Assembly: GCA_029938185.1 (NCBI GenBank)
Contig: JAOZVK010000002.1
Span: forward strand, 1-43,129
Direction: 5' to 3'
From: Bacteroidales bacterium
GTDB lineage: Bacteria > Bacteroidota > Bacteroidia > Bacteroidales > JAOZVK01
DNA length: 43,129 bases
The notes under the pieces are model-generated. The model did no database searches. It was not told the DNA's origin and saw nothing but the letters and a program-made list of their open reading frames with translations. Shown piece by piece: positions 1,548 to 42,304 of this stretch. Position 1 is the first letter of the stretch. The number at the start of each line of letters is the position of its first letter. The position numbers and the translations under genes are program-made.

Positions 1548-2765
1548 ATGAAAAAAGAAGACTTTTTATTTGAGCCGTCAATTAATACAAGAGACGATGT
1601 ATACGAACTAATTTCATGGTGGAAAAAAGATAAAGTTCGAAATGCAAAAGTAATGGTTATTGGAGCAGGAGCACTAGGAAACGAAGTACTAAAAAACCTT
1701 GCACTATTAAATATTGGAAATATATTGATTGTTGATTATGATACAATTGAATTTTCAAATCTTTCGCGTTCTTTGCTATTCAGAGAAAATGATGCAAACA
1801 ACAATGCTCTTAAATGTAGTATTGCAGCCGAGAGAGTTAAAGATTTAAATCCTGAGGTTAAGGTAATGTCTCTTAATGCTGATATAAATAATGGTATTGG
1901 CTTAGGAGTTTTCAGACGTATGGATGCAATTATAGGCTGTTTGGATAATCGTTTGGCAAGACTTTCAATAAACAGGGCTTGTTATAAATTAAGAAAACCA
2001 TGGATTGATGGAGCAATAGAAAACCTTGCAGGACAATCAACTGTTTATGTTCCGGGCAAATCTTGTTATGAATGTGATTTGACCGAAAGAGAAAAAAAAA
2101 TGATTAGAAGAGCACAAGCATGTATGAATGTTGCTAACAGGAGTATTGTTAGAGGACGAATCCCTACAACTCCAATATCTGCTTCAATTATAGGAGCAAT
2201 ACAAGCACAGGAAGCTCTAAAGATAATACATAATTATGATGAAAAAAGCAAAGAAGCATACTTTGAGACTTTAAAAAGTAAAATTTTTAGATACGAAGGA
2301 AAAACTATTGATATTGGTGTGTATGAATTAGAAGATATTAAGGAAGACTGTGATAGTCATTATTATTATGATGAAATTATTGAAGCAAATGAATTAAGTC
2401 ATAATACTACTGTTGGAGAGTTGATTGAATGGGCACAAAAAACATTTAATGAAAGCGAACCTGAAATTCCTCTTCAACAACAATTTATTTATGAATTAAT
2501 TCAGGACAAATCAGAAAATAGAATATCTGTCAGATTACCAGAGAGTAAGGTGCGTGAATATATTGAAACAAATAATTTAAGAACCGACTTTAATGAAGAA
2601 GTATATTTAAAAGGTTATCATTATTTAACTATTGACTTCCCTTTCAAAGAGCTTACTCTTAAAGAAGTAGGTATAGCTCCGCTAGAGATTATCTTAATTG
2701 AAATTGAAGGAGCAAAAAAATATGTTGAATTAACAGGTGATAGTAATTATCTTAATTTTAAATAA
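1548..2765 (+). CDS. Ubiquitin-activating E1-like adenylyltransferase (ThiF/MoeB/HesA superfamily) with C-terminal extension
   Basis: Rossmann loop VMVIGAGALGNEVLKNL (GxGxxG at ~1662-1679). Adenylation motif DYDTIEFSNLSRSLLF, then CLDNRLARLSIN. CYEC zinc-type pair and a downstream Cys (RRAQACMNV) as candidate catalytic Cys. The ~140-aa C-terminal extension is possibly UFD-like (inference). The gene ends 17 nt before the Ubl gene. Confidence 0.85.
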   Translation: MKKEDFLFEPSINTRDDVYELISWWKKDKVRNAKVMVIGAGALGNEVLKNLALLNIGNILIVDYDTIEFSNLSRSLLFRENDANNNALKCSIAAERVKDLNPEVKVMSLNADINNGIGLGVFRRMDAIIGCLDNRLARLSINRACYKLRKPWIDGAIENLAGQSTVYVPGKSCYECDLTEREKKMIRRAQACMNVANRSIVRGRIPTTPISASIIGAIQAQEALKIIHNYDEKSKEAYFETLKSKIFRYEGKTIDIGVYELEDIKEDCDSHYYYDEIIEANELSHNTTVGELIEWAQKTFNESEPEIPLQQQFIYELIQDKSENRISVRLPESKVREYIETNNLRTDFNEEVYLKGYHYLTIDFPFKELTLKEVGIAPLEIILIEIEGAKKYVELTGDSNYLNFK

Positions 2766-2782: not shown

Positions 2783-3067
2783 ATGGCAAAAAAGAAATAT
2801 AGAGTTCGTATAGTACATACAGGCAAAGAATTTACAATGAGTTTGGATCCAAGTACTCAAGGATTACAGATTGTTAAAGCATTATTGAATAATACAAAAC
2901 TAAACTTGGTTAAAACTGATACAGAGGGTAACCCTATAGAGTATAAACTAAGCTCTAAACAAAAAGGAAAAGATATTAGTACAAATACTCTTAGTGAACT
3001 TGGTATTACTGATGGTGATGTACTTCTTTTGCATCAAAAAATTATTGCGGGATATTTAGTAGTGTAA
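2783..3067 (+). CDS. Ubiquitin-like beta-grasp protein (Ubl) precursor ending ..QKIIAG followed by a 4-aa tail YLVV
   Basis: 94 aa with a beta-grasp-like pattern: YRVRIVHTGKEFTMSL, helix TQGLQIVKALLNN, then LSELGITDGDVLLLHQKIIAG. Gly codon at 3050-3052. It lies between E1 and E2. Two further copies of the same domain occur in the 25811 ORF. The last two codons and the stop (gta gtg taa, 3059-3067) lie inside an R1 repeat copy. Confidence 0.75.
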   Translation: MAKKKYRVRIVHTGKEFTMSLDPSTQGLQIVKALLNNTKLNLVKTDTEGNPIEYKLSSKQKGKDISTNTLSELGITDGDVLLLHQKIIAGYLVV

Positions 3068-3374: not shown

Positions 3375-4046
3375 ATGAGATCTAAAAAATACAAAAATGC
3401 CAGAGATAGCAGATTGGCAAAAGAATATAAAAAAGTTGAAGAACTCTGTAGCAGAAGTTCCAGAATTACTTTTAAAATATTGCATCAAACTAAAAGTAGC
3501 AGACTGCCCGATAAATATGAAATAACTTTTAAATTAAAAAGTATAGTAGGTATTGACAAAAAAACAAAAATGCCTGAATACAGCAATCTGCATAAAATGA
3601 GAATTACATTGCCGCCACGTTGGCCAGCAGCAGATTCTCCTCCCGATTATTATATTAATACAGATATTTGGCACCCAAATATTAAGTCATCTGACCCATA
3701 TAAAGGTCATGTATGTATTAATTCTAAAGCAATATCAGTTTTTGAAGGTTTAGACAATCTTATTCTTAGGGTTGCCGAGCTTTTGCAGTGGAAAAACTAT
3801 TTGGCTGAAGACAAGCCGCCATACCCCGAAGATGTTAATGTGGCAAAGTGGGTACGAGATTTTGCCGAACCAAAAGGTATAGTTAATTTTAAGAAAGGAC
3901 TAGCAATAGATTACTCTGATTTGCTAGAACCTATTGAAGATGAAACTATTTTTGAAGAACCAAATGATGGCGAAGATGATGGTATTGTTATTATTATTGA
4001 AGATGAAAAAATAAAAGATATAGATATCGAAATTGAATTTGATTGA
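3375..4046 (+). CDS. Ubiquitin-conjugating E2 (UBC-fold) enzyme with acidic C-terminal tail
   Basis: Eukaryote-like UBC signature. RLAKEYKKVEEL at the N-terminus, then YEITFKL and MRITLPPRWPAADSPPDYYINTDIWHPNI (HPN at 3672-3680). Catalytic Cys context KGHVCIN (tgt 3714-3716). LILRVAELLQWKNY follows. C-terminal tail is GIVIIIEDEKIKDIDIEIEFD. Confidence 0.85.
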   Translation: MRSKKYKNARDSRLAKEYKKVEELCSRSSRITFKILHQTKSSRLPDKYEITFKLKSIVGIDKKTKMPEYSNLHKMRITLPPRWPAADSPPDYYINTDIWHPNIKSSDPYKGHVCINSKAISVFEGLDNLILRVAELLQWKNYLAEDKPPYPEDVNVAKWVRDFAEPKGIVNFKKGLAIDYSDLLEPIEDETIFEEPNDGEDDGIVIIIEDEKIKDIDIEIEFD

Positions 4047-5040: not shown

Positions 5041-7644
5041 ATGAATATTATTGAATTAATCCCTAAATATATGAAAACTACATATAAACTCTTTTTTATT
5101 TTGCTAATTTTCTTTTCATTTTTTAATACCACAGTTGCACAAACTTGGAACTACGAAGGAAAAGGTGCAGGTAAGGACATCAAATTTACATTAAAAATTA
5201 TTACAGATGCAAAAAAACCGAATTTTTTTTATATTGGAGGAGGTATAACAAAATTAGATAAAGGATGGCTACATATAGCTATAAAAGATATTAAAATTCC
5301 AAAAAATGTAAAAATTATAACAAGTGGGGCTAAATATAAACAATGGAGTAAAATTAGTAAAACAATACCTCATAAACAAAGACTAAAATTTGAATTATTA
5401 CCAGGTTTTAAGGGTGGAGATATTGATTTAAAAATAAAATGTCAATATAATGAAACTGGAGATTTTAAAGTTAAAAGGTTATCACCAAATGGCATCTACA
5501 CGTTTAAAATAAAAAATTTACCTGAAATTTTAACTGCTGATGAGAAAAAAAAAGAAGCTGAAATAAACGAAACCAAAAGATTATCAGAAAAAGCTAAGAA
5601 TATAGAAACAAAATATAGAGATACAATTAATATAATCAAAGCTGATAATACTAAAATTAAAGAAGATTTAGAAGCTCTAAAAAAACTAATTAAGAATACA
5701 GATGTAAGTGAAAGTGAAAAATTCAACACTTATTATAATGAACTTAAAAAAATAGAAGCCAAAATAGACAAAAATATAGAGAGCTTACAGCCAATTATAA
5801 ATAAGTGTGGAAATGATAAAACAAAAGAGCCAGTTAAAAAAATATATACAGAAATAAATAATTTAAAAACGGATTATAAGGAACTTAAAAAATCAATGGA
5901 AAGCAAAGAACTTTATAAACATACCAATATTGTAAAAAGATGGAAGAACATAAAAGAAAAGAATAAAAAAGAAGCTAATATACTTACAGTAAAATACTTG
6001 CCAATATATACTAAATTAAAATCAAGTTTTGAAACTAATATAACAACATGTAAAGAATTAAAAGAAAAATTTGCAAAAGCACTTATTAGTGATAATGATA
6101 CTGATGTTCAAAGTTTGTATAAACAATATGATAACTTTATAAAAAACTTCAATAAAGATTCAATAAAAAAGAAGAATACTGATAGTGATTATGAAAAAGA
6201 AAAAAAACATCTAATTAAAAAATTAGAAGAAGTAAATAAATTAAAACTTGAGTGTGAACAATATATAAATACATTAGCAAAAGCAGATGGCTTAATAGTA
6301 GAGTTAAAGAGAGAACGAAATAAATTATTGGAAAAAATTCCAGCAAAAAATAATACATGGATATATATTCTAGTAGGAATATTAATTGTTTTGGCAATTT
6401 CGGCTTATCCAATCTTTAATTTTTTAAAAAAGAAAAAACAAAAAAAAGATGCAGACAAAGAAAAAGCAATTATAGATAATATAGATATTGATATTGATTT
6501 TGACGAAAATATGATTGAAAGTGGTTTAATTATATCATTGGAAAATATCAATAAAGGTGAGTATTTGGAAGTTTTGATGTCCGAACAGTGGAATAATTCA
6601 TTTGTAAAAAAATGCTATTTGCATCAAACTGTTATTGAAAAAATATATGAAGTTTGCAGAGAAGAGCAACAGAAAAAAGGAAAAGGAAGTAAAGCACCTG
6701 AAATGGGGGGCTTTTTACTTGGGAAATACTATATGTATGAAAATGATTTATATGATGTTTATATTGATAAATATTTACAACCAAGCGAAGTAGAGCACCA
6801 AGACCTATACCAAATTGAGTTTGGCTCAAAAGCTATGTTAGAATTAGATGATGCATTGCGAAACAATTTAGAAAATGCTCTTGTTGGTTGGTTTCACACT
6901 CACCCCGGTCATGGTCCTTTCCTTTCGATGCCCGACCTGAATATACATAATGGTATGTTTACCAAAAAATGGCAACTTGCTATTGTTACTGACCCATATC
7001 GTGGTCTTGAAACAGGTATATTTACACGTTTTCAAGATGTTACAACAAAAAGTCGAACCAAGATTAATAATAAGGGGCAAAAAAAATGGTTCAATTGGAG
7101 AGATGATTTTATTAAAGCAAAAAAAGTCAATGTAGCAGAAACAACTAAATTACAAACAAATCTACCTCAAACACTTGAAGGGAATTATTATCCAATTGAA
7201 TTAAGTAAATTTTGGATAAATTCTAATGTGATGAAAATATATATTGAATATAATCTAATCTTTGATCTTGATAAAATAAGTATTTCTAAAAAAGAAAATA
7301 ATTCTGAAAGAATAAATTTTGATGGATACATTGTGGGATATTATAAAGAGATTGAATCTCAAAAATATAATCTTTATTTAAATAAAATTTCAAAAGAAAA
7401 ACCATTGAAAAATAATGTTGCATGGATTGGAAGCTCTAAACTTAAAATGAATGTGCTACAAGGAATAATTCAAACATTTCATAAAAATAAATCTATAAAT
7501 AAATGGGATATAGCTGTTGTACTTTCAGATAATAAAGATAAAATAAGCTTTTTCCCAACTAATAAAAATGGAAAATTAAATTTTTCTTCTGATGAAAAGC
7601 ATAGTATGAATTTTTCGGAATTAGATAATTGGACAAGAAAGTAA
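5041..7644 (+). CDS. Membrane-spanning JAB/MPN+ (JAMM) metallopeptidase: signal peptide, ectodomain, long coiled coil, TM, cytoplasmic JAB domain, C-terminal domain
   Basis: JAMM motif GWFHTHPGHGPFLSMPDLN (HxH at 6895-6903) with upstream Glu in APEMGGFLLGKYY. TM segment WIYILVGILIVLAISAYPIF is followed by KKKKQKKD (cytoplasmic side). A more likely start is the internal Met at 5071 (MKTTYKLFFILLIFFSFFNTTVAQ signal peptide). Confidence 0.88.
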   Translation: MNIIELIPKYMKTTYKLFFILLIFFSFFNTTVAQTWNYEGKGAGKDIKFTLKIITDAKKPNFFYIGGGITKLDKGWLHIAIKDIKIPKNVKIITSGAKYKQWSKISKTIPHKQRLKFELLPGFKGGDIDLKIKCQYNETGDFKVKRLSPNGIYTFKIKNLPEILTADEKKKEAEINETKRLSEKAKNIETKYRDTINIIKADNTKIKEDLEALKKLIKNTDVSESEKFNTYYNELKKIEAKIDKNIESLQPIINKCGNDKTKEPVKKIYTEINNLKTDYKELKKSMESKELYKHTNIVKRWKNIKEKNKKEANILTVKYLPIYTKLKSSFETNITTCKELKEKFAKALISDNDTDVQSLYKQYDNFIKNFNKDSIKKKNTDSDYEKEKKHLIKKLEEVNKLKLECEQYINTLAKADGLIVELKRERNKLLEKIPAKNNTWIYILVGILIVLAISAYPIFNFLKKKKQKKDADKEKAIIDNIDIDIDFDENMIESGLIISLENINKGEYLEVLMSEQWNNSFVKKCYLHQTVIEKIYEVCREEQQKKGKGSKAPEMGGFLLGKYYMYENDLYDVYIDKYLQPSEVEHQDLYQIEFGSKAMLELDDALRNNLENALVGWFHTHPGHGPFLSMPDLNIHNGMFTKKWQLAIVTDPYRGLETGIFTRFQDVTTKSRTKINNKGQKKWFNWRDDFIKAKKVNVAETTKLQTNLPQTLEGNYYPIELSKFWINSNVMKIYIEYNLIFDLDKISISKKENNSERINFDGYIVGYYKEIESQKYNLYLNKISKEKPLKNNVAWIGSSKLKMNVLQGIIQTFHKNKSINKWDIAVVLSDNKDKISFFPTNKNGKLNFSSDEKHSMNFSELDNWTRK

Positions 7645-7738: not shown

Positions 7739-10102
7739 ATGAAATCAATTTTGAAGTTAACAAAAATAATTTTTATCATTTTTTTTATTTTCCCAATAAA
7801 TGTTTTTACACAGAATCTTGAAATAACAGATATTCAATTTCGTAGAGATTCCTTATTGGTTGATGTTTTTTTTAGCGTCCGAGATGGAGGTGGCTTAATT
7901 AAACTAAAAGATGTATATGATGATTTGAGAGTTGTTGAAAAGAAATTTGATAAAAGCTTAGAAATGAACAAACTTCATTATCAAAATCTTAAAGGTGGAG
8001 TTTCGGGCAATAGACCGGGAGGAAACAATGGTGCAAAGGTTAAAGTTGAACAAATGACCATATCGGTAGCTCTTGATTATAGCGGAAGTATGAGTTATCA
8101 TAACAAATTGGAACAAGCCAAAAAAGCTGTAAAAAGTGTTTTCGATGTTGGGCTTCCTGATGGTAGTATTTGGTTTACAACATTTCATCATGATATATCA
8201 GCAAAAAAAATACTAACACCATCAAACTATGATGAGATAGTTGGTAGTTTAGTACCACACCCAAAAAACAAAAGTAGCTTGTTTCATACCAATTTACGAA
8301 CAGTTATTGTTAATAAAATAATTGAACTCAAAGAATCTAAAAGAAAGGGAAAAAAAGTATTAATAATATTAACTGATGGTAAACATGATTTAAAAAATCA
8401 CCCTGACTTGGAAAGTATTTCTCCAGACGAAAAGCAAGTTTTGGACTGGGCAAGCAAAGCCGATATTGATATATATACCATTGGTATTGGCGATAATTCT
8501 AAAGGAGAGTCAAGCATAAACAAAAAATTTCTTGAAGCAATACCGGCAGCAACAAAGAGCAAGTTTGATGGTTATCTTTTTGCAAAACTTCCAAAAGACT
8601 TAGGAAAACATATAAAGAAAACAATAGAAACAGCCAGAGCTGACTATATGATAACACTAAGGTCTAATTTTGATATTTATGAAGGAGTGGACAGAACTGT
8701 TACACTAAGAATAAACAAAGGTTCGCTTGATGTTGAAGATGATATTCAATATATAGGGGGGAGTGGAATTGATAAAATAAAAATGTTTGAAATGGATGAG
8801 AAGGGTAATATTGTACATGTAAAGCCAAATGTATTTGCATCTATTTTAACAGGAATAACTGCTTTGTTTTTATTATTTGTTGTTTCTGTGATTTTGTATC
8901 CGGCTACGATGAAAAAAATATTTGATAAGAAATTTACAAAAAAATATATACCCGAAGATGATGATACTACAGAAGATTGCCCTGTATGTGGCAACCAAAT
9001 TGTTAAGGGCGAGCTGATTGTAACAAAATGTGAACACAAACAACATAAAACATGCTGGGAAGGCGAGCCAGACCCTAATAAATGTATTATGAATTGCGAT
9101 GCTAAATTTGATAAAGGTTTTAAAGTGAGTGACTTTTTTGACCAAAAAGGAGAAACAGTTTCACTAAACTGGATGTTTTTTGGTGCTCTTGCCTTGTTTG
9201 TTGCATATATAATTATAGCTTTAAGTGGCGATAGTGGCTCATATTCATCTTTTATGCAATCGTTGTTAGCAACAGTAACAGGCGAAGATACTAAAGTTAT
9301 AAAACGTATATATTTGTCGGATTTTACACGTAATACCTTAAATGGAATTTTTGTAAGTGCCTCATTAGGCTTTGCTTTTTCGTATCTCGAAGAAAGACGT
9401 AAAAGAATGGATGCCAAAACTTTTATTAAAATTTTTGTAAGAACATTTATTTTAGGTTTAATTGGTTTTATTGTCTTTTTCATTGGTTCTTCAATCTCAA
9501 AAGCGATAAATATGGATTATATTTCGGGCTTAATTATGTGGTTGTTGTTTGGCTTAATTATAGGTGCATCTTTATCAATAGGTACATCAATTAGTGTGAA
9601 AAATGGAATAATAGGTGGACTTTTGGCTTCAATTATAGCATACCAACCATTTTATTTTATAATTAAATATGTGGGAATGCCAGATATATCAAAAGTTATA
9701 AGTTTTATTATTTATGGAGCCATACTTGGTTTATTGATTTCGGTTGTAAACAAAAAACTTGAAAAATATGTTCTGAAAATAACACAAGTACCAGCCGGCA
9801 GCGAAAAATGGCAAGGAGTTGATGTGAAAATTCATAAATGGATGAATACGAGTCAAGTAGTTACTATTGGTAAATCAGTTGATAATCATTTTACTGTTCA
9901 TTGGGAAGACCAAATTCCTGAAAGTTCTATTAGTCTTGAAAAAACAGTAGATGATAAAATATTTTTAAATGTACTTGATACAGTTGAAGAAAAACCTGTA
10001 CAACTAAACAACAGAATTCTTGTAGAAGGTACTAAAAGACAAATTTCTAACAATGATATAATCCAAATAGGAGAAACTAAATTTCAGTATATGGAAGAAT
10101 AA
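7739..10102 (+). CDS. Signal peptide, vWA domain, TM, RING-H2-like zinc finger, ~6 TM helices and a C-terminal FHA-like domain; candidate membrane E3 ligase
   Basis: vWA MIDAS ISVALDYSGSMS (gat at 8075) and VLIILTDGKHD. RING-like CPVCGNQIVKGELIVTKCEHKQHKTCWEGEPDPNKCIMNCD (8978-9097) has spacing C-x2-C-x13-C-x-H-x2-H-x2-C-x9-C-x3-C. Several hydrophobic helices lie between ~9170 and 9750. C-terminal VVTIGKSVDNHFTVHW...NNRILVEGTKRQISNNDIIQIGETKFQY is FHA-like but lacks a clear SR.H motif. Confidence 0.75.
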   Translation: MKSILKLTKIIFIIFFIFPINVFTQNLEITDIQFRRDSLLVDVFFSVRDGGGLIKLKDVYDDLRVVEKKFDKSLEMNKLHYQNLKGGVSGNRPGGNNGAKVKVEQMTISVALDYSGSMSYHNKLEQAKKAVKSVFDVGLPDGSIWFTTFHHDISAKKILTPSNYDEIVGSLVPHPKNKSSLFHTNLRTVIVNKIIELKESKRKGKKVLIILTDGKHDLKNHPDLESISPDEKQVLDWASKADIDIYTIGIGDNSKGESSINKKFLEAIPAATKSKFDGYLFAKLPKDLGKHIKKTIETARADYMITLRSNFDIYEGVDRTVTLRINKGSLDVEDDIQYIGGSGIDKIKMFEMDEKGNIVHVKPNVFASILTGITALFLLFVVSVILYPATMKKIFDKKFTKKYIPEDDDTTEDCPVCGNQIVKGELIVTKCEHKQHKTCWEGEPDPNKCIMNCDAKFDKGFKVSDFFDQKGETVSLNWMFFGALALFVAYIIIALSGDSGSYSSFMQSLLATVTGEDTKVIKRIYLSDFTRNTLNGIFVSASLGFAFSYLEERRKRMDAKTFIKIFVRTFILGLIGFIVFFIGSSISKAINMDYISGLIMWLLFGLIIGASLSIGTSISVKNGIIGGLLASIIAYQPFYFIIKYVGMPDISKVISFIIYGAILGLLISVVNKKLEKYVLKITQVPAGSEKWQGVDVKIHKWMNTSQVVTIGKSVDNHFTVHWEDQIPESSISLEKTVDDKIFLNVLDTVEEKPVQLNNRILVEGTKRQISNNDIIQIGETKFQYMEE

Positions 10103-10201
10103 ATGATCTTACTTTCAATGGTATGCAGCTTAACGAAGTGATTATTAATTAGATACAACTTAATAAAATAAAAATTAATTTAATATAAAAAAAAAAGAAT
10201 A

Positions 10202-11074: not shown

Positions 11075-11085
11075 ACAGTAATATT

Positions 11086-11379: not shown

Positions 11380-11381
11380 TT

Positions 11382-14426: not shown

Positions 14427-14449
14427 ATAAAATTAAGTAAAGATAGATT

Positions 14450-14549
14450 TAAGGTCTTCGACTTATTTAATGTTACTTACGCATTCTGTTAATACTTTAA
14501 TATTGTGTTTTAACAAAAAGCAAATGTCGGAAAACTTTTGTAAGGCTAC
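14450..14549 (-). repeat. R1 intergenic repeat element, full copy, reverse orientation
   Basis: The sequence taaggtcttcgacttatttaatgttacttacgcattc...caaatgtcggaaaacttttgtaaggctac begins 24 nt after the stop of the SrfB-like gene. Confidence 0.8.
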
Positions 14550-14617
14550 TTAAAACTTTTGTATTTAGACTTATATTTTTCAAATTTTTACGAATTAATA
14601 CTTAATACTCAATAAGC

Positions 14618-14625
14618 TATTTTTG
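14618..14625 (+). promoter_or_regulatory. Candidate Bacteroidota -7 promoter box (TAnnTTTG)
   Basis: tatttttg matches TAnnTTTG ~40 nt upstream of ATG 14665. No convincing -33 TTTG was seen. Confidence 0.3.
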
Positions 14626-14664
14626 TTTTTCACTAATTGACAACTGAATATAAAAAATTTAATT

Positions 14665-15642: not shown

Positions 15643-15714
15643 CTTGAATGTAAGTATTTATTTGGTCTACTACCTTAAAATCTGTTTTTGTACAATTGAT
15701 AAAATTAATAAATT

Positions 15715-18543: not shown

Positions 18544-18614
18544 ACATAAAATACTATTTACTTTCTCATAAATAAGTTCTCTAATAAAAATCTATATTAA
18601 AAACTAATCATAAA

Positions 18615-23017: not shown

Positions 23018-23119
23018 TAAGGTCTTCGACCTATTTAATGTGGCTTACGCATTTTTATAAATTGCTATTATGTAGCCAATTGTACAAAAACAAATGCCGA
23101 AAAATTTTTGTTAGGGTAC
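23018..23119 (-). repeat. R1 intergenic repeat element, full copy, reverse orientation
   Basis: The sequence taaggtcttcgacctatttaatgtggcttacgcattttt...caaatgccgaaaaatttttgttagggtac begins 15 nt after the stop at 23002. Confidence 0.85.
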
Positions 23120-23939: not shown

Positions 23940-24923
23940 ATGAAAAATAAACTTTTTTTATCTCTATTGATGACATTATTAGTATTTTCTGCATGCAAAG
24001 ACGAGAAATGTGCAGATATGAACCAAAAACTTGAATTGCAGCTTGAAGAATATGAAAAGAGAGAAAAATTTCTTAGCGAAGCAATGACTGACTATGACAA
24101 GAGTATTGATGAGTATAAATTGAAAAACGATACTCTGAAAATGTTTCAGGATTCTGTGAGGATTCTTACACAAAAAATGGACGAAAAAGGTTCTGCAAAT
24201 AGTGAAGAAACTAATGTATTAAAAAAATATATGACTAAGATTAGAACAATGTTATCCGAAAATAAGAAAATAGCTAAATATTTGAAAGAATATGTTGGTG
24301 ATAAAGACCTTGGTGCCAATCCAGCTTTAGCAGTAGAATTTTTAGCCAAAAACATTGAATCAAAAGAAGTTGAAATTAAAAGTATGCAAGATGAAATTGA
24401 ACGATTAAAAAATAGAATAAGTGGGCTTAACTATACAATTGTTACTATTAGTGCAGAAAAAGATGAGTTAACTGATGGGTTTGATTCTTTAAAAGTAGAA
24501 AATACTATTGTCAAAACTCAAGTCGCAAAATTATTAGCACGAAGTATTAAAACTCAGTTTTATGGTAAAAGTAATAAAAATATAACAAAAGCATTAATTC
24601 GTTTACATAAAAGAGCAAAATTTATTGAAATATGTTTTAATATAAACAAAAACGAATATGCAACTAAGGGTAATCATTCTTTTTATATATGTATTCAAAA
24701 AGGTAATAATATTCTTACAAATAACACATCGAATATTTTAAGAACACCTGATAATAAGGAATTTGGTTATACAATAAAACAAGATGTCAATTTTGATGGT
24801 AGTTTTACTAAAACATGTGCACGCTGGAATAAAGAAACCATAGAATTAACAAAAGGTAAGTACACAATTATTATATATAATAAAGATGGTGAAATTATAG
24901 GAAGAGATTATTTCAGTTTATAA
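23940..24923 (+). CDS. Lipoprotein with coiled-coil region and C-terminal beta-rich domain, function unknown
   Basis: SPII-type signal MKNKLFLSLLMTLLVFSAC (lipobox-like FSAC). Coiled-coil heptads follow (EIKSMQDEIERLKNRISGL..). Confidence 0.65.
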   Translation: MKNKLFLSLLMTLLVFSACKDEKCADMNQKLELQLEEYEKREKFLSEAMTDYDKSIDEYKLKNDTLKMFQDSVRILTQKMDEKGSANSEETNVLKKYMTKIRTMLSENKKIAKYLKEYVGDKDLGANPALAVEFLAKNIESKEVEIKSMQDEIERLKNRISGLNYTIVTISAEKDELTDGFDSLKVENTIVKTQVAKLLARSIKTQFYGKSNKNITKALIRLHKRAKFIEICFNINKNEYATKGNHSFYICIQKGNNILTNNTSNILRTPDNKEFGYTIKQDVNFDGSFTKTCARWNKETIELTKGKYTIIIYNKDGEIIGRDYFSL

Positions 24924-24944
24924 ATTAAAAAACCAAACTTGTAT

Positions 24945-25793
24945 ATGAATATTATTATTGATTTTCAAAACAAAAAAATTAATAGAGAAATAACTTTAGA
25001 TATTGATATTAATATTTTTATAAAGCAAATGTTATCTAAAACAGATATTGTTGATTACTCGGAATATGAGTTATTTTCTATTGAGAAAAATAGAGCAGTT
25101 ACAGGAACTTTTTCAGAAAATAATATAAAGCAGAATTGTGAATTTATTTTACAAATTAGAAATAAAAAAAAAATTGAAAAAGAATATTCTGAACTTACAG
25201 ATATTGATATTGACATTGAACTAATTGACAATAACGAAAATGAAAGAGGTCAATTATTTCAAACTGAAAATATTGATAATTCCAAATATAAAGAATACTT
25301 GCTTGATGAGATATACGATAGTACAATAGTTAAAAAATGTTATATTCATAATAATACATTTAATGAAATTAAAGAGTTTTGTATTGAATCAATCAAGAAA
25401 AAGATAAAAAAAGAATATGGAGCATTTTTGCTTGGCAAATTTTTCAAAAAAAGTGATAACGAATATATTATTTATATCGAAAAATTTGTAATTCCAACTT
25501 GCTATGCTTTTCATAACGAATATCGTATAGACTTTGGCAGCAAAGCAATGATTGAGCTTGATGCTGCTTTACAAAAAAACAAAAATATGTGCCTTATAGG
25601 TTGGTTTCATACACACCCAGGACACTCTGTTTTTTTATCAAACTACGATTTAAATGCTCACTATGGTTCATTCAACGAACCATACCAAACTGCAATTGTT
25701 ACTGATACTCTTACCGAAGAATTTGATACAGGTATTTTTACGCGAAAAATAAATATGGAAATGAATAATATTGAGGATGTAATTGTTAAATAA
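24945..25793 (+). CDS. Soluble JAB/MPN+ (JAMM) metallopeptidase, paralog of the 5041 JAB domain, with a possible beta-grasp-like N-terminal region
   Basis: JAMM motif IGWFHTHPGHSVFLSNYDLN (HxH at 25608-25616) with upstream Glu in KEYGAFLLGKFF. As in the 5041 protein, an acidic alternating motif (LTDIDIDIELID) and a KKCY(L/I)H block precede the JAB domain. The track start at 24939 is a TTG; the ATG at 24945 gives MNIIIDF. Confidence 0.85.
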   Translation: MNIIIDFQNKKINREITLDIDINIFIKQMLSKTDIVDYSEYELFSIEKNRAVTGTFSENNIKQNCEFILQIRNKKKIEKEYSELTDIDIDIELIDNNENERGQLFQTENIDNSKYKEYLLDEIYDSTIVKKCYIHNNTFNEIKEFCIESIKKKIKKEYGAFLLGKFFKKSDNEYIIYIEKFVIPTCYAFHNEYRIDFGSKAMIELDAALQKNKNMCLIGWFHTHPGHSVFLSNYDLNAHYGSFNEPYQTAIVTDTLTEEFDTGIFTRKINMEMNNIEDVIVK

Positions 25794-25810
25794 TTTTATT
25801 AAGATATATT

Positions 25811-26884
25811 ATGAAAAAAATGAAATACCGTGTAAGAATAGTACATACAGGGAAAGAATTTACAATGTCATTATCTCCCAACACACAAGGAACACAGATT
25901 GTAAAAGCATTACTAAATAACACCAAACTAAACCTTGAGAAAACTGACTGTGGAGGAAATCTTATAGAATATAAACTAACTTCAAATCATATTGGTAAAG
26001 ACATATGCAATGAGACATTAGCAAATGTAGGTGTTACAAGTGATGATTTATTGTTATTATTTCAAAGGTTTAAAAAAATGAAATACCGTGTAAGAATAGT
26101 ACATATAGGGAAAGAATTTACAATGTCATTATCTCCCAACACACAAGGAACACAAATTGTAAAAGCATCACTAAATAACACCAAACTAAACCTTGCGAAA
26201 ACTGACTGTGACGGAGAACTTATTGAATATGAACTAACTTTAAAACGTACTGGTAAAAACATACGCAATGAGACATTAGCAAATATAGGTGTTACAAGTG
26301 TTGATTTATTGTTATTATCTCAAAAAATAATAGCGGGAAAACCTATAATATATTTGTATCCAAATATAGAACAGGAGGTTTCTATAAAACTTAATATCAA
26401 AGGTATTATAACAGTGACATATCCACCATATAAAGATGAATGGAAAGTAAAAGCATTTCCTGATGGTAAAATTATAAACTTTTCAGATAATAAAGAATAT
26501 TCATATTTGTTTTGGGAAGCCAATATTTTTTTAAAATGGAATATAGAAGATATAGATGGTTTTGTTGTAAAAGGAGGTGAAACAGCAGTTTTTCTGCAAG
26601 ATATTTTATCAAAATTAGGATTGTTGCCTAAAGAATATAATGAATTTATTGTTTGGTGGTTACCTCAAATGCAAAACAATAAGTATAATTTTATACATTT
26701 TTCAGAAAAAGAATATCAAGATATTGCACAGCTTTCAATAAATCCAAAACCTGATTCTGTTTTGCGTATATTTATGGTTTGGAAGGCATTAGAAACTAAA
26801 ATAAAAGTAAAAGAACAAAAAACAAAAAATTTTAAAAGAAAAGGCTTTACTGTTGTTGAATGGGGAGGTACCCAAATATATTAA
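25811..26884 (+). CDS. Tandem di-Ubl fused to a ~182-aa C-terminal domain of unknown function (polyubiquitin / Ub-fusion-like precursor)
   Basis: Two head-to-tail copies of the 2783 Ubl domain. Repeat 1 spans 25811-26077 (MKYRVRIVHTGKEFTMSL...LLLLFQRFKK). Repeat 2 spans 26078-26338 (MKYRVRIVHIGKEFTMSL...LLLLSQKIIAG, Gly at 26336-26338). Then KPIIYLYPNIEQEV... continues to 26884. Confidence 0.8.
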   Translation: MKKMKYRVRIVHTGKEFTMSLSPNTQGTQIVKALLNNTKLNLEKTDCGGNLIEYKLTSNHIGKDICNETLANVGVTSDDLLLLFQRFKKMKYRVRIVHIGKEFTMSLSPNTQGTQIVKASLNNTKLNLAKTDCDGELIEYELTLKRTGKNIRNETLANIGVTSVDLLLLSQKIIAGKPIIYLYPNIEQEVSIKLNIKGIITVTYPPYKDEWKVKAFPDGKIINFSDNKEYSYLFWEANIFLKWNIEDIDGFVVKGGETAVFLQDILSKLGLLPKEYNEFIVWWLPQMQNNKYNFIHFSEKEYQDIAQLSINPKPDSVLRIFMVWKALETKIKVKEQKTKNFKRKGFTVVEWGGTQIY

Positions 26885-26899
26885 GTAAAAAAATAACAA

Positions 26900-27553
26900 A
26901 TGATAGACATAATTTTAGGAACAACTCTTTCATTAGCCAGCATGGGACATGCATTTGTACAAGACAAAAAACAAGATAAAATCAATAAAGAAATAATCAA
27001 AGAGTTGAAAGAACTGACGATTGTTGTTAAACAGCTATACGATAATGCAGTTGATAATGATGAATTTATCGAAATATCTATAGAAGACGAAATTCATATT
27101 CATATCGACGAAGATACTAAAAGAAGTGCAATTCCAAACTCCGACTCAATTATAATATATGATGACGATTCCGAGATTGATATTGAAGTTTTTAATGAAT
27201 TCCAGTTAGAAATTACAAAACTATATATATACATAAATATTATTAAAGCAGATGGAGTGATTGATAACAATGAAGTAATTTTTTTTAATAAATTGTTGGA
27301 AAAATCAAAATTAAACGAGAAAATCAAACAAGATATTTATAATGAATTACATAGTTCTAAAGAGTTTGATATTGAAATATCTCACTTACTTATATATCCA
27401 GAAACAATTATTAACAACATTATTACAAATGTTATAAATATTGCTGCTTGTGATGGCTATATTCATAAAAAAGAAAAAGAATTTATTTATGAACTTGCTA
27501 AAAAACTAAAAATTCCTAGAATAAGAATTGATGATATGTTAAGCATTGCTTAA
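26900..27553 (+). CDS. Protein with an acidic alternating-motif linker and a TerB-like C-terminal domain
   Basis: Two ADG-x4-E type repeats typical of the TerB fold: IIKADGVIDNNEVIFFNKLLEK and IAACDGYIHKKEKEFIYELAKKLKI. The preceding segment is IEISIEDEIHIHIDED...IIIYDDDSEIDIEVF. Confidence 0.55.
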   Translation: MIDIILGTTLSLASMGHAFVQDKKQDKINKEIIKELKELTIVVKQLYDNAVDNDEFIEISIEDEIHIHIDEDTKRSAIPNSDSIIIYDDDSEIDIEVFNEFQLEITKLYIYINIIKADGVIDNNEVIFFNKLLEKSKLNEKIKQDIYNELHSSKEFDIEISHLLIYPETIINNIITNVINIAACDGYIHKKEKEFIYELAKKLKIPRIRIDDMLSIA

Positions 27554-27574
27554 CATTTATATTATTATGTTGTG

Positions 27575-27601
27575 AAACTGTGTTAAAAAAACAGAGTTTT
27601 T
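27575..27601 (+). terminator. Weak AT-rich hairpin plus T-run after the 26900 gene
   Basis: aaactgtgt (27575-27583) pairs with acagagttt (27591-27599) with one mismatch, followed by tt. Confidence 0.3.
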
Positions 27602-27771
27602 AGGCTATATCAATACAATTTTCTTAAATTAAGTCTACAATTGGCTGTCTTCATGTCTGTAGACTGAAAGCTGTTGTTTATCAGACTTATTAAAAGTAAT
27701 AATTTAGCAATTTTGTTTGTTGCTTCGCTATGCTAAGTATATACTATAAACAATGTTCATTTTTTTTAACA

Positions 27772-29286
27772 ATGCAAATAATAACAAAAACAAATAAAGA
27801 TAATATACGTTTGATAATCGGTAATTATTATGATTACAGTCATAGGTATAATTATTTGTCAAATAGTTTGAAAAATGTAGATTTATTTTTTGCTGAACCG
27901 ATTATAGGAACAAATACTATTCTTTGGCAAACTCCTATTAATGAGCTTATAACTAATTTTAATAAATTATCAATATTAAAACAAAATAGTGTAAATCAAT
28001 ATATTAAAAAAATAATAATATTTGAACTTAATAAAATAGCAGAAAACAATATTTTATTATCAAAAAAAATAAATAAATATCTCACAATTCCCAATACAGA
28101 TAATATATATGTTTCGGAAAATGGTAATGCAATTAAAATAATTTTAACACAATGGGGTAGCAAATTTGATGATTTTAATAGAAAAGCTGTAAAACTTGAT
28201 GCTATACCATTCAACAAAAAAGAATCAGCAGGTACTATAAGTCAAGCCAAACCAAGTCCCAAAAGAAAACCCAAAAAAATAGAAGAGAGCAAACCTCTAA
28301 CTACAACAAACCAAAATACGACAACTCATACTTTTAGTTTTGATTTAGATATAAACACGTATAAAATAAATCTAAATTTAACAAATAATTTATACAAGTA
28401 CTTTCAAACACAACAAAAAGCATTTATTTATCAAGGAAAAGTACCACCAAAAAACTGGGAAGTTAAATATCATACAATGTTTTTAAACAAAGAAAAAGAC
28501 AATGATATAACTGAAGAAATAATAAAAAAGCTTAAAAAAATTGCATTAAAAACACAATTTTCACTTGTTGAAGTAATTACTGCTTTTGTACAGGGTGCAA
28601 TAGAGTACCAACATAGTAAAATAAACGATATCAATAGAGTGAAATATTACCCATATGAAACACTTTATCAAATAGAAGGCGTATGTGAAGATACGTCAAT
28701 ACTTTTGGCTAAATTATTAATATCATGTAACTATGAGGTAGTATTTCTAAGTTATGAACGCGCTAAACATCTTGCAATTGCTATTAAAGTTAATTCCCAT
28801 AAATATTCGAGCTATACATATAAAAAAAAATATTTTGCATATATAGAAACGACATCATATAGCAGGATAGCCAAAAAACCAGAAAAATTAGCAGAAGATA
28901 TAAAACTAAATGAGAAGGCAAATATTTTGCTGCCAGAAATAAACGGAAAAAAAGAATTTCATATTTCTAATGATTTTATGAAATATGAAAATGAAATTAT
29001 AAGCAAATACAAAAAAGAATATTTTGCAATATCTGCTGATGGGCGAAAACTGCTGATAAAAATATGTTATAAAAAAAACGAACTTGAACTAATTAAAAAC
29101 CAACAGGAACAACTAAATAAAGAGTTAAAAAGTTTAAAACAAAAATTAAATACACAAACAGTAATTGATAAATATAATAAAAAAGTAAATGAATTTAACT
29201 TGCTTAACAATAAAGTAGAACAAAAACAAAATGAACACAACAAATTAGTAGAAGTATTAAACCAAATAAATAAGCAAAATACTTAA
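27772..29286 (+). CDS. N-module, transglutaminase-like / papain-fold Cys peptidase domain and C-terminal coiled coil
   Basis: N-module motifs FFAEPIIGTNTILWQTPIN and IILTQWGSKFDD. Cys context YQIEGVCEDTSILLAKLLISCNYEVVFL (tgt 28684-28686), then AKHLAIAIKV (His) and YIETT (acid). Coiled coil is ELELIKNQQEQLNKELKSLKQKLN. By homology with its paralogs, the start is probably the Met at 27772 (MQIITKTNKD) rather than the track start at 27730. Confidence 0.65.
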   Translation: MQIITKTNKDNIRLIIGNYYDYSHRYNYLSNSLKNVDLFFAEPIIGTNTILWQTPINELITNFNKLSILKQNSVNQYIKKIIIFELNKIAENNILLSKKINKYLTIPNTDNIYVSENGNAIKIILTQWGSKFDDFNRKAVKLDAIPFNKKESAGTISQAKPSPKRKPKKIEESKPLTTTNQNTTTHTFSFDLDINTYKINLNLTNNLYKYFQTQQKAFIYQGKVPPKNWEVKYHTMFLNKEKDNDITEEIIKKLKKIALKTQFSLVEVITAFVQGAIEYQHSKINDINRVKYYPYETLYQIEGVCEDTSILLAKLLISCNYEVVFLSYERAKHLAIAIKVNSHKYSSYTYKKKYFAYIETTSYSRIAKKPEKLAEDIKLNEKANILLPEINGKKEFHISNDFMKYENEIISKYKKEYFAISADGRKLLIKICYKKNELELIKNQQEQLNKELKSLKQKLNTQTVIDKYNKKVNEFNLLNNKVEQKQNEHNKLVEVLNQINKQNT

Positions 29287-30383: not shown

Positions 30384-31529
30384 ATGAATAAATATAAAAA
30401 AAAGTTAAAATTTGGTAGCAACAACGAAGAGTATATAATTAAAATAAAAAAGCCATGTAAATTGTGTTTATTATTGCTGTTAGTGCCTTTGTTATTGCTA
30501 ATAAGATTTAACAATAAAATTGATTATGTTTTGATAAATAGTTGCGATAATTCTAAAATTGCAGATACAGAAATAGCTATAAATTATAAAGATAATAATA
30601 TAGAACTTCATAATATCAAAAAAAAAACAGATTTAAATGGAGTAGTTTCATTTAAAATAAAAGGTAGGCGTTTATACGAAATTATTTTTGGACTTAATAA
30701 AATTACTAGCTACGAAGTTACCGCAAATGCAAATTCATTTGGCAAAACATTGGCTTCACACAAAGAATTATTAGTAAACTTAATTGAAAAAACAACAAAT
30801 TTGATAGTTAGTATAAAAAAGGAATTTGTTGTAAATGTAATAAGCAAAAAAAACGAAAATTTAAATATTCCAGAAACAAATATTAAACTAAAATATTATA
30901 TCAATGACAAAGAAACAATTCTAACATGTATTTCAGATAAAAAGGGAGTTTGTAGATTTGATATTCCTGTATGTGCTGAAGGAATAAAGCTATTTGGAGA
31001 AAAAAATGGCTACTCGTCTGATAGTATTTCTACAAATCTTGTTTCGGCAAAAGCAAATCCGGATAATAGAAAATTGAAATTGGAAGTATTAGGACCAGAA
31101 CCGCCTAGAGAGAATTGTAGGGCTTATTTTACAGGTAGATTAGTTGGTGAAAAAGTTAGAAATACTAAAGGCATTGTCATACCTTATATTGTAGATAAAT
31201 GGAGTGAGTATGTTGGTTCAGGCGAATATCCGGATAACAGTGTAGCTTTTCCAAAAGCAGTAGGTTCTTCTTTTGACGGAATTGCAATTGATTCAGGAAC
31301 AAGAGTAATTATTTATAAAAATAAAAACTTTACAGGTGAAATATTATTTGATAAAACAGGTCCTGCAATTGTTAATAATAAGGATTATAAAAATTCTTAT
31401 GCTTATTGTGATACGATTGTTTTTCCAATACCTGAGATTCAAGCAAGTTTTCCAAGTTCAGTTCGTGAGTGGAGTAAAACAAGTATGCATAATTGGTCGA
31501 ATGGTTCAGTTAAAATTATTTGTCAATAA
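30384..31529 (+). CDS. Single-pass membrane partner protein (IKIKK-CxxC-polyLeu N-terminus), beta-sandwich repeats and a beta/gamma-crystallin-like C-terminal domain
   Basis: N-terminus EEYIIKIKKPCKLCLLLLLVPLLLL. The C-terminus FDGIAIDSGTRVIIYKNKNFTGEILFDKTGPAIVNN..SNGSVKIICQ is homologous to the 21164 C-terminus. YKNKNFTG fits the Y/F-x4-F/Y-x-G Greek-key motif. Confidence 0.7.
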   Translation: MNKYKKKLKFGSNNEEYIIKIKKPCKLCLLLLLVPLLLLIRFNNKIDYVLINSCDNSKIADTEIAINYKDNNIELHNIKKKTDLNGVVSFKIKGRRLYEIIFGLNKITSYEVTANANSFGKTLASHKELLVNLIEKTTNLIVSIKKEFVVNVISKKNENLNIPETNIKLKYYINDKETILTCISDKKGVCRFDIPVCAEGIKLFGEKNGYSSDSISTNLVSAKANPDNRKLKLEVLGPEPPRENCRAYFTGRLVGEKVRNTKGIVIPYIVDKWSEYVGSGEYPDNSVAFPKAVGSSFDGIAIDSGTRVIIYKNKNFTGEILFDKTGPAIVNNKDYKNSYAYCDTIVFPIPEIQASFPSSVREWSKTSMHNWSNGSVKIICQ

Positions 31530-31622: not shown

Positions 31623-31672
31623 AATTTAGTAAAACAATATTAAATTTATCATTATATAATAATTTCTCATTT

Positions 31673-32935
31673 ATGAAAACAATAGAAAAAAAGTCTACAT
31701 CTTCAATAAGATTTATCGTTGGAGCAGTAAACGATTATGATATAAGATATCGTAATTTACAAAAATTCTTAAAAAAAGGTAATCTTTACACTCTTTTTGC
31801 TCAACCCCTAGTGTCGGGTAAACAAATTTTATGGCAAACTCCTTTGAAAGGAAAAATTACAAAGTACTCAAATTTATCACTGGATAAACAAAATATAGCT
31901 GATAGAATATTGGAAGAGCAGGCAGGTCAAATCATTGGTGCTATTTCTAACAGAATGAATACAAGTAAAATAAAACAATATTTAAGCATTCCGACCAAAA
32001 GTGATATTTATTTAGTACAAACAGATTTGGAAGATAAAGTTGTTATCACTCAATGGGGATGTGTTGCTGATGATGCTGATAAAATGCCTGTTACAATTAT
32101 CAAAGATGAAAATTTTCCTGTACCTGTTTTATTTATTGTTAAATATAAAAATGGAGAAATGGCTCCTAATGAAGATTTATTTATTGTATTTAATAATATG
32201 GCAAATAAAGAAAATTCAGGAACAGAAGCCAAAATTGACTTTGGAAAAGTTGTTAAACGCACACCAATACAAGTATATCAAATTGTTGAGAAAAAAAAAC
32301 AATTTTTTCACGACTTTATTGTTGATAGTCGAATTGAGTATTTTATAGAACTACCTCCTCTACAAACAATGCACTTTATGGTACAGGATACAAATGGAGA
32401 CACTAAATCTGATTATAGTTTTACTTTTGAATATGCTGGTAAAAAACTTACTCAAATATCAAACGAAAATGGATTTATTGATATTGAAGGGATTAAAGTA
32501 ACAACTTCTGTTAAAGCATATCATGAAAAATCTGAAAAAAAATTATATCCACACTCTTTTATTTGTGAGGAAGATAGAGATGTATATATTTTGTTAATAC
32601 CTGCACCTATCGTTAAGGAACCACCACCAATAATTATTGATGAACCAGAACCATATATTGAGCCAAAATCAAAACCAAAACCTAAGGAATTAAAAATTAA
32701 ACTTGTAACAAGACGTTTCTTTTTTCAAAAAAACAAACCCATAGCAAATCAAGAAATTGAATTTAAACATAAAGAAAAAGAATATAAACTGACGACTGAT
32801 GATGAAGGATATTGCACACTAATAATAGATGAAATAGAAAAAGACGAAATAATTGAAGCATTAGTAAATATTCCAAAAAAGAAAAAAGAAAAAAAATCAA
32901 AACCAAAATATTCAAAAGACAATGCAAATAATTAA
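31673..32935 (+). CDS. N-module, two beta-sandwich-like repeats, Pro/Lys-rich linker and a small C-terminal domain
   Basis: N-module motifs LFAQPLVSGKQILWQTPLKG and VVITQWGCVADD. The start is set at Met 31673 (MKTIEKKSTSSIRF) by homology with 37767 (MKIIEKKSTSSIRL); the 31601-31672 extension lies in a repeat element. The gene overlaps the next gene by 14 nt. Confidence 0.75.
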   Translation: MKTIEKKSTSSIRFIVGAVNDYDIRYRNLQKFLKKGNLYTLFAQPLVSGKQILWQTPLKGKITKYSNLSLDKQNIADRILEEQAGQIIGAISNRMNTSKIKQYLSIPTKSDIYLVQTDLEDKVVITQWGCVADDADKMPVTIIKDENFPVPVLFIVKYKNGEMAPNEDLFIVFNNMANKENSGTEAKIDFGKVVKRTPIQVYQIVEKKKQFFHDFIVDSRIEYFIELPPLQTMHFMVQDTNGDTKSDYSFTFEYAGKKLTQISNENGFIDIEGIKVTTSVKAYHEKSEKKLYPHSFICEEDRDVYILLIPAPIVKEPPPIIIDEPEPYIEPKSKPKPKELKIKLVTRRFFFQKNKPIANQEIEFKHKEKEYKLTTDDEGYCTLIIDEIEKDEIIEALVNIPKKKKEKKSKPKYSKDNANN

Positions 32936-37625: not shown

Positions 37626-37766
37626 TTAATAGTGATACATATAATTAATATAAGGTTCTAAATTTGACAATTATTACGTTTTTAAATAAACAAAAAAAGT
37701 TTATTTCTGGGACTTGATTTAGTATAAACAGTATTAAATTTATCATTATATAATAATCCCTCATTT

Positions 37767-42190: not shown

Positions 42191-42202
42191 TGGCTTTTGG
42201 AA

Positions 42203-42304
42203 GTACTGTTACAAAAGTTTTTCGACATTTACTTATTCATGATTTCCTGATTAAATTGTTTTTGTCCTAATGCGTAAGTAACTATAAATAGGTCGAAGAC
42301 CTTA
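42203..42304 (+). repeat. R1 intergenic repeat element, full copy
   Basis: gtactgttacaaaagtttttcgacatttacttattc...aatgcgtaagtaactataaataggtcgaagacctta. Confidence 0.85.

Follow-up and report, generated by a model that had tools for sequence, protein, structure and literature searches.

A Bacteroidales gene joining two ubiquitin-like repeats to an unrelated conserved domain: a candidate Ubl-cargo pre-protein

Eukaryotic ubiquitin genes such as Ub-L40/UBA52, Ub-S27a/RPS27A and UBB/UBC encode precursors in which a ubiquitin-like (Ubl) unit with an intact tail stands without a linker before another protein, and a deubiquitinase is needed to separate the two. Among bacterial systems, BubAB is a natural pre-protein in which a Ubl is fused to an E2, and it is cleaved by the JAB domain of BubCD right after the conserved Gly229 (PMC11601596); a fusion of BilA with GFP is cut by BilC (PMC10557695). 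A paper from 2006 (PMC1779556) had described tandem "polyUbl" proteins as well as TAPI of phage lambda, a Ubl fusion whose gene adjoins that of a JAB. Here we analyze a gene at positions 25811-26884 of a 43,129-nucleotide stretch of DNA from Bacteroidales bacterium (assembly GCA_029938185.1, contig JAOZVK010000002.1, positions 1 to 43,129; hereafter the window), whose product consists of two head-to-tail Ubl repeats followed by an unrelated C-terminal domain (C-domain). The chances appear about even that this gene encodes a Ubl-cargo pre-protein belonging to the ubiquitin-like conjugation module of the surrounding gene island. Coordinates of all features are collected in Table 1.

The two Ubl copies form a tandem direct repeat of 258 nucleotides (nt), or 86 codons, with 89% nt identity and mismatches at 27 of 258 positions, and Tandem Repeats Finder delimits the same structure at 25814-26324 (period 258, 2.0 copies, 92% matches, score 889). 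The agreement of the two repeat finders bears out the initial annotation, which had described head-to-tail Ubl copies with highly similar DNA; its architecture of ~88-amino-acid (aa) repeats and a 182-aa C-terminal domain also holds, while the sizes become an 86-aa unit and 181 aa. The repeats are 78% identical in aa sequence and repeat 2 scores 151.6 bits against a Ubl profile. Unit 1 (aa 1-89) ends in ...DDLLLLFQRFKK, and unit 2 (aa 90-176) ends in ...VDLLLLSQKIIAG and is directly followed by KPIIYLYPNIEQ... As first annotated, only the second repeat keeps the IIAG tail: QKIIAG is found in unit 2, FQRFKK ends unit 1, and the junction between the repeats reads ...LLLLFQRF-KKMKY... The linker between tail and cargo has zero length, G176 being followed by K177, which with P178 forms the invariant start of the C-domain; an intact Ubl tail here passes directly into an unrelated folded domain. 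Translation of 2783-3067 agrees with the earlier statement that a stand-alone Ubl ends in HQKIIAG+YLVV, and the soluble JAB gene placed directly upstream does end at 25793, 17 nt before the fusion gene, with its active-site motif intact.

An identical copy of the fusion protein (P0121) is encoded on three contigs, and contig L001 (NCBI GCA_029935775.1) is 100% identical over 2,235 bp corresponding to window positions 25545-27779, both repeats included. The identical second contig and the 27 mismatches between the copies show the duplication to be real and not a product of assembly collapse or expansion, and we rejected an assembly artefact as its source.

The initial annotation also called the gene polyubiquitin-like, a comparison that we abandon. 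Every unit of polyubiquitin is cleavable, whereas the FQRFKK linker has no cleavage site, and the gene thus lacks the cleavable tail on every repeat by which a polyubiquitin-type precursor is recognized. It resembles eukaryotic ubiquitin-fusion genes in that an intact-tail Ubl is directly followed by another protein, and differs from them in its cargo, which is not a ribosomal protein, and in its tail, which is IIAG rather than LRGG; apart from the fold, nothing points to homology. ISG15 and FAT10, BilA (Type I Bil) and Ubl2 likewise have two beta-grasp domains per chain with one reactive C-terminus on the second. Their domains are old and diverged and carry at most a short C-terminal extension, whereas the 78% identity found here points to a recent split and a 181-aa folded domain follows. 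By this comparison ISG15/FAT10 and the bacterial Ubl2/Ubl3 proteins appear to be closer analogues than polyubiquitin. Ddi1, Rad23 and parkin also have an N-terminal Ubl, used for docking and not removed, and the UBL of Ddi1 is the top fold match of repeat 1; a conjugation-type tail is absent from these proteins, whereas repeat 2 keeps the exact tail of its conjugatable paralogue.

BubAB (Type I Bub, 6E.1 operons) provides an experimentally shown counterpart of the mechanism proposed below: a JAB from the same operon cuts after the conserved tail glycine and yields a conjugatable Ubl (PMC11601596, PMC11601603). The Bub partner is the pathway's own E2, whereas here it is an unrelated and otherwise extracytoplasmic domain. 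Bub E1 and E2 use Tyr and Ser oxyesters, whereas the E2 of the window has a canonical HPN...Cys motif; DUF6527 of the Bub systems was not detected in Pfam scans of the window proteins. Furthermore, the junction glycine is conserved in 107 BubAB proteins and is missing from the one orthologue of our fusion. PADLOC (2023, without Bub models) gave no BilA, BilB or BilD match and none for the Ubl or the E2, and by the tests available the locus does not appear to be a Bil or Bub member. TAPI of phage lambda is similar in having an N-terminal Ubl and a small C-terminal domain beside a predicted processing JAB, protein K (PMC1779556), and differs in its glycine-rich linker and phage tail context; neither part of our protein matches any PHROG. 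What is new in this locus is the cargo, a normally extracytoplasmic domain with no PDB fold match that is not a pathway component; the setting in an SrfB/SrfC island with a RING-like E3 candidate; and the very recent doubling of the Ubl head.

The initial annotation expected both repeats to be predicted as beta-grasp domains. In the full-length AlphaFold2 model, residues 1-88 have a predicted local distance difference test (pLDDT) score of ~85 and a beta-beta-alpha...beta...beta topology, with strands at 4-10, 15-21, 53-58 and 80-86 and a helix at 27-35. Foldseek matched repeat 1 with probability 1.0 to PDB structures of the Ddi1 UBL, ubiquitin (template modelling (TM) score 0.80 on the target), SUMO-like domains and 8tyx_A, a bacterial Ubl from a Ubl-deubiquitinase complex, and the ESX-5 EccD Ubl was also among its fold matches. 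According to this model, repeat 1 is a ubiquitin-like beta-grasp domain. Residues 89-170 have pLDDT values below 50. This is technical, because repeat 2 had no alignment depth: MAFFT set all Ubl rows on repeat 1, including the isolated repeat-2 row, which is 82% identical to the query. For repeat 2, we infer the beta-grasp fold from its 78% identity to repeat 1.

Comparison with the free Ubl suggests how the head arose. Its Pfam matches are below cut-off (YukD the best with E 4.6e-4, ubiquitin E 1.3e-3), and both fused repeats are 68-69% identical to it in aa and 66-67% in nt sequence. Synonymous divergence (dS) between the free and the fused units is saturated at ~1.9, while nonsynonymous divergence (dN) is 0.25-0.30 and dN/dS is 0.13-0.16, as would be expected of old paralogues under purifying selection. 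The QKIIAG hexapeptide of unit 2 is that of the free Ubl with two synonymous differences only (ATA vs ATT), and since it is identical despite the saturated dS, the tail has been maintained by selection inside the fusion. Divergence between unit 1 and unit 2 is very different: over the first 80 codons dS is 0.048 and dN 0.088, with ~16 nonsynonymous against 2 synonymous changes, which is compatible with neutrality (p = 0.2) and incompatible with a dN/dS of 0.15 (p = 3e-6). With the free Ubl as outgroup, nine of 11 polarisable differences in the 240-nt body are assigned to unit 2 and seven of eight in the last 18 nt to unit 1. Unit 1 thus preserved the body, while its tail was lost where the two copies join; in unit 2 the tail survived and the body has changed more, L31S in the conserved KALLNN helix being one of the changes. 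All this is most simply read as a recent in-frame tandem duplication that was tolerated and that started from an ancestral fusion with one Ubl. Since dS is ~0.05, changes number 16 against 2 and the duplication is missing from the only orthologue, it does not look like an evolved feature and was probably tolerated as close to neutral, without being adaptive. We also considered and rejected an origin of repeat 1 from a separate glycine-less Ubl gene fused to the gene downstream, like the Ubl ending in QRKYY described below: that Ubl is 41% identical to repeat 1 and 44% to repeat 2, while the repeats are 89.5% identical in DNA.

The cargo can be assigned by full-length similarity and invariant residues to a family that we refer to by its motif as KPVIYLYP...EWGG. 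A 90%-clustered protein collection contains 2,646 homologues of the C-domain, and the best 120 matches are 57-65% identical over 99% of the domain (E ~1e-66). An exhaustive HMMER search with a combined Ubl and C-domain profile matched 6,453 of the 50%-clustered representatives; the row of the orthologue (P0001) turned all 269 columns of this profile into profile positions, so C-domain matches dominate, and among the matches listed all but P0001 align via the C-domain. Lys1 and Pro2 are invariant across 121 C-domain sequences, the domain starting exactly at the Ubl junction, and all 42 invariant family columns are kept in the window protein. Between the window protein and P0001 the C-domain has a dN of 0.146, a dS of 1.13 and a dN/dS of 0.13, indicating purifying selection. 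Because the invariant columns are kept and dN is so low against dS, the domain is likely to be functional.

A typical member of the family has ~210 aa and consists of a signal peptide, lipobox or membrane anchor that runs directly into (A/K/G)KPVIYLYP. Among the 278 family members examined that carry the motif, 247 have a strong hydrophobic 15-mer upstream and 115 a lipobox. Longer members add SLH, discoidin-type (F5/8-C), Big_2 or copper-amine-oxidase-N domains, others a cytosolic zinc ribbon and a membrane helix, and a Ruminococcus albus plasmid has the C-domain inside a gene whose annotation is BspA family LRR surface protein. Most family members are small clostridial lipoproteins or secreted proteins, and the domain is also present in MT835506, an unannotated gut phage record. 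No hydrophobic segment is found in the window protein or in P0001, where Ubl domains stand in the position of the export signal. Judged by these sequences the family is essentially extracytoplasmic, and the C-domain of the window, whose counterparts in other bacteria are exported or sit on the surface, lacks an export signal and would have its place of action in the cytoplasm.

AlphaFold2 modelled the C-domain with a pLDDT of 95.6 and a predicted TM score of 0.89. The fold search of residues 177-357 that the initial annotation had proposed returned nothing from the PDB with an E-value below 0.4, and neither sequence nor profile comparison matched the PDB; the sole fold match, with E 1.4e-11 and TM 0.77, is to a Terrestrivirus protein that is itself uncharacterised. 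The same residues matched no Pfam, NCBIfam, PADLOC or PHROG family, and the gene neighbourhoods of two C-domain homologues had no conserved partner. As a guess, the invariant aromatic and acidic residues would be compatible with glycan binding or hydrolysis.

Fusion to a Ubl is exceptional in this family. A full-length query gave 2,855 hits, and only the protein itself and P0001 align beyond the C-domain; P0001 was also the only match to the Ubl part among the best 150 of the exhaustive representative search. When 298 collected proteins were searched with the Ubl profile, only the window protein (two domains), the free Ubl and P0001 were found. A word-indexed protein search for the di-Ubl found none, its index requiring several shared 5-mers and missing even P0001, so that this result reflects low sensitivity rather than absence. 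No relatives were found with a Ubl alignment in GTDB species genomes, JGI metagenomes and IMG/VR, or with an alignment of the neighbouring 613-aa protein in genomes of GTDB species representatives and JGI metagenomes; the lineage is poorly sampled.

P0001 is a protein of 269 aa with a single Ubl from an ENA metagenome contig (L002). Variation of repeat number among orthologous loci, which the initial annotation had proposed to look for, is therefore seen as one versus two repeats in a single comparison locus. On L002, homologues of window genes 18615 and 21161 are followed by P0001, a 90-aa Ubl and a JAB-like fragment (5822-6364), whose N-terminus looks Ubl-like by eye, has no glycine tail, and precedes a part resembling the JAB encoded at 24939. 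The fused Ubls are closer to the free Ubl of their own genome (68-69% aa identity) than to the Ubl of P0001 (42-43%), which fits shared E1 and JAB partners. Between the two loci the Ubl head has a dN of 0.49-0.52, ~3.5 times that of the cargo (0.146). The ancestral form was in all likelihood a single Ubl fused without a linker to the 181-aa domain, as in P0001.

The proposed route from this gene to a modifier can be outlined as follows. Since the free Ubl carries the four-residue extension YLVV, a peptidase specific for the end of ...QKIIAG must exist. One of the two island JABs would mature the free Ubl (QKIIAG/YLVV) and also cut the fusion after Gly176 (QKIIAG/KPIIY), the likelier protease being the co-operonic soluble JAB (24939). 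The in-frame 258-bp duplication added a second Ubl at the N-terminus and removed the four residues IIAG from the upstream copy. The first product would be a linear di-Ubl that has no internal cleavage site and ends in a free glycine, and E1 (1548), E2 (3375) and the RING-like protein (7739) could then activate and conjugate it. The second product would be a C-domain starting at the invariant Lys-Pro. We favour cleavage after Gly176 because JABs cut Ubl-X fusions after the tail glycine in BubAB and in BilA-GFP, and by analogy with these systems release of a conjugation-ready linear di-Ubl and a free C-domain has about as much in its favour as against it.

Several observations weigh against such processing. 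The P0001 junction reads ...LLVLVYEIIA/KPIIYLYP, and the free Ubl beside P0001 (90 aa) ends in ...LLLYQRKYY; as neither has a glycine, a glycine-dependent step is not conserved between the loci, and the junction glycine is absent from the single orthologue. The full-length AlphaFold2 model draws residues 173-183 (IIAGKPIIYLY) as a single unbroken strand, which, if real, would bury the scissile bond. The residue before Lys-Pro is commonly Ala (76 of 278) or Gly (41 of 278) across the family. The near-neutral divergence of the two Ubl copies argues against a strong E1/E2-recognition constraint on both. Finally, the first ~90 aa of the JAB encoded at 24939 align weakly (26% identity) with the Ubl set and lack a glycine tail, and uncleaved Ubl heads may thus occur at this locus.

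Some of these points would be explained if the Ubl head were permanent and served for docking or regulation, as the N-terminal UBL does in Ddi1, Rad23 and parkin, bringing the C-domain to the E1, E2, JAB or other Ubl-binding components of the island or holding it inactive. The glycine-less P0001 junction with its neighbouring Ubl, the placement of the tail in the first C-domain strand, and JABs that begin with Ubl-like regions lacking a cleavable tail at both loci (the 26% alignment here, by eye on L002) are all consistent with this explanation, as is the ~3.5-fold faster evolution of the head, since adaptor domains often evolve in this way. It is possible though doubtful, however, because the exact QKIIAG is retained across saturated synonymous divergence, which would not be expected of a mere linker, because the absence of a linker is shared with known cleaved precursors, and because JAB cleavage of comparable fusions has been demonstrated in other systems. 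The gene could also be a non-functional oddity, a decaying or accidental product of the frequent duplications in the island or an assembly artefact. A repeat-to-repeat dN/dS of ~1 or more, further recent duplications and split genes in the island, and the fact that just two such fusions were found in the protein collection would suit this, yet the reading frame is intact, all 42 invariant C-domain residues are kept with a C-domain dN/dS of 0.13, and the sequence recurs unchanged in a second assembly with 27 differences between copies, as a collapsed-read artefact would not; we regard it as highly improbable.

Another possibility is that the Ubl head stands in for the signal peptide of a domain that is normally exported and may act on the cell envelope, making the protein a pro-effector or a substrate of unconventional delivery. 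The head could keep the domain latent in the cytoplasm as long as no trigger has activated the JAB, with a suicide or defence outcome once it is active, or it could target the domain to a membrane machine, in the manner of YukD/EccD-type Ubls in type VII secretion. The hydrophobic leader or anchor in 247 of 278 family members with a lipobox in 115, the family fusions to SLH and discoidin-type domains and the BspA family annotation point in this direction, and so do the many effector-like peptidases and membrane proteins of the island and the matches to YukD (the best Pfam match of the free Ubl) and to the ESX-5 EccD Ubl. We nevertheless consider it unlikely: the C-domain neither has a known or predictable toxic activity nor matches a PDB fold, genes of a secretion system were not recognised in the window, and the YukD match is sub-threshold. 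A more speculative combination, which we rate as a long shot, is that the Ubl head is a switch on a latent effector, the normally exported domain being made in the cytoplasm and capped by the di-Ubl. In this improbable scheme SrfB, SrfC and the RING-like von Willebrand factor A (vWA) protein would be the sensor machinery; once it is triggered, the co-operonic JAB would cut after Gly176, and, no less conjecturally, one cut would both free an envelope- or precursor-directed activity and supply a di-Ubl modifier. If true, it would be a single-cleavage, two-output defence step without a described counterpart.

Returning to the genomic context of the candidate pre-protein, five genes lie 12-17 nt apart between two terminator-like hairpins, and the fusion gene is the fourth; three such hairpin sites were found against 0.7 expected in the region. 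The first gene (23181) encodes a Ubl-like region ending in ...VLILRAIIG, with 22% identity in the Ubl-set alignment and a weak Rad60-SLD match; its hydrophobic segment is probably transmembrane, and the gene may be a second cleavable Ubl fusion. Three Ubl modules, those of genes 2783 and 23181 and repeat 2 of the fusion gene, end in II(A)G. The second gene (23940), 12 nt and 15 nt from its neighbours, has sub-threshold matches of coiled-coil type only and, read by eye, encodes a probable lipoprotein. The third encodes the soluble JAB, whose active-site motif E...HTHPGHSVFLSNYD (HxHx7Sx2D) was read from the sequence and whose PADLOC matches are JAB and, weakly, BilC (E 4.6e-4). The fifth, a TerB-domain gene, begins 15 nt after the fusion gene.

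Table 1. Positions of the fusion gene, its parts and other features of the window
Feature	Position	Strand	Basis
Ubl-Ubl-C-domain fusion open reading frame (ORF), 357 aa	25811..26884	+	ORF list
Ubl repeat 1, aa 1-89, tail FQRFKK, without IIAG	25811..26077	+	repeat finders, AlphaFold2, Foldseek
Ubl repeat 2, aa 90-176, tail QKIIAG	26078..26338	+	identity to repeat 1, Ubl profile
Q171-K-I-I-A-G176 tail codons, candidate JAB cleavage and E1 activation site	26321..26338	+	
C-domain, aa 177-357, KPVIYLYP...EWGG family member	26339..26881	+	homologue searches, AlphaFold2
E1-like adenylating enzyme	1548..2765	+	Pfam ThiF E 7.7e-51
Free Ubl precursor, 94 aa, ...QKIIAG + YLVV extension	2783..3067	+	translation, Pfam
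E2-like protein, HPN...C motif	3375..4046	+	Pfam UQ_con E 1.5e-5, 25.1 bits (cut-off 27)
Second JAB peptidase	5041..7644	+	Pfam JAB 34.7 bits (above cut-off)
vWA protein with RING-like motif, candidate E3	7739..10102	+	Pfam VWA 29.3 bits
Terminator-like hairpin upstream of five-gene unit	23020..23032	+	
Gene 1 of unit: N-terminal Ubl-like domain, acidic linker, hydrophobic segment	23181..23927	+	tentative
Gene 2 of unit: coiled-coil protein, N-terminal hydrophobic leader ending in Cys	23940..24923	+	
Gene 3 of unit: soluble JAB peptidase	24939..25793	+	Pfam JAB 26.1 bits (cut-off 22.5)
Gene 5 of unit: TerB-domain protein	26900..27553	+	Pfam TerB 26.1 bits (cut-off 24.4)
Terminator-like hairpin at end of TerB gene	27536..27556	+	

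The cognate E1, E2 and deconjugating peptidases appear, from their sequences, to be encoded nearby. The E1 has generic matches to E1-E2 proteins of cyclic-oligonucleotide-based antiphage signalling systems (CBASS) in PADLOC, and the motifs of the E2 (WHPNIKSSDPYKGHVC) and of the second JAB (HTHPGHGPFLSMPD) were read from the sequence; in both island JABs the E...HxHx7Sx2D motif is complete. Judged by hydrophobic segments that were seen by eye, the second JAB looks membrane-anchored. The RING assignment of the vWA protein is tentative (Prok-RING_1, 17.9 bits, below cut-off); by eye it has hydrophobic segments and an FHA-like C-terminus, with no Pfam FHA match listed. Genes for SrfB (Pfam 1e-213) and for a GTPase resembling SrfC (Virul_Fac 1.8e-139) lie upstream of the five-gene unit, and our literature search found no paper linking SrfB/SrfC to ubiquitin-like systems. 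All 32 genes examined lie on the forward strand, over the region 1548-21164 and on to about 41800, and none has a Shine-Dalgarno-like motif, which would fit Bacteroidota; the window has 27% guanine plus cytosine, and scans for tRNA and Rfam families gave no matches.

Further observations concern the island as a whole. Seven paralogous genes (18615, 21161, 27730, 29433, 31601, 32922 and 37767) share, by eye, an N-terminal domain of ~150 aa with ...FAEP...ILWQTP...IILTQWG..., which in 21161 has a weak SrfA-family match (NCBIfam E 0.0014). Their C-terminal parts differ (subtilase, transglutaminase-like, papain-like peptidase with DUF4384), and together they look like a diversified effector set. 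An 88-nt direct repeat (419-506 vs 42201-42288, 84% identity, 41.8 kb apart) brackets nearly the whole island and could represent mobile-element ends or a repeated regulatory element. The island also contains recent segmental duplications. One (31632-31931 vs 37726-38025) gives genes 31601 and 37767 a DNA identity of 97% across no fewer than 300 nt; in another (4141-4688 vs 5105-5643), the 5' part of the JAB gene at 5041 recurs as gene 4095-4820 with 79-83% identity. Two adjacent ORFs (121 and 140 aa) at 40378-41195 align by eye with the N-terminal and middle parts of a 381-aa protein (30384-31529) and look like a paralogue split by a frameshift or stop.

If cleavage after Gly176 is confirmed, the gene would represent a natural bacterial Ubl-cargo precursor in a canonical-looking system, in which the E2 motif is of the Cys type and the E3 candidate is RING-like. 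The cargo of this precursor would lie outside the conjugation machinery, a design closer to eukaryotic ubiquitin-fusion genes than to BubAB. The island, which joins SrfB/SrfC "virulence factor" genes to a full ubiquitin-like toolkit, is probably the more interesting object, and together with the unannotated C-domain family it deserves more attention than the repeat. For that family of more than 6,000 uncharacterised proteins, confirmed cleavage would provide a first functional handle.

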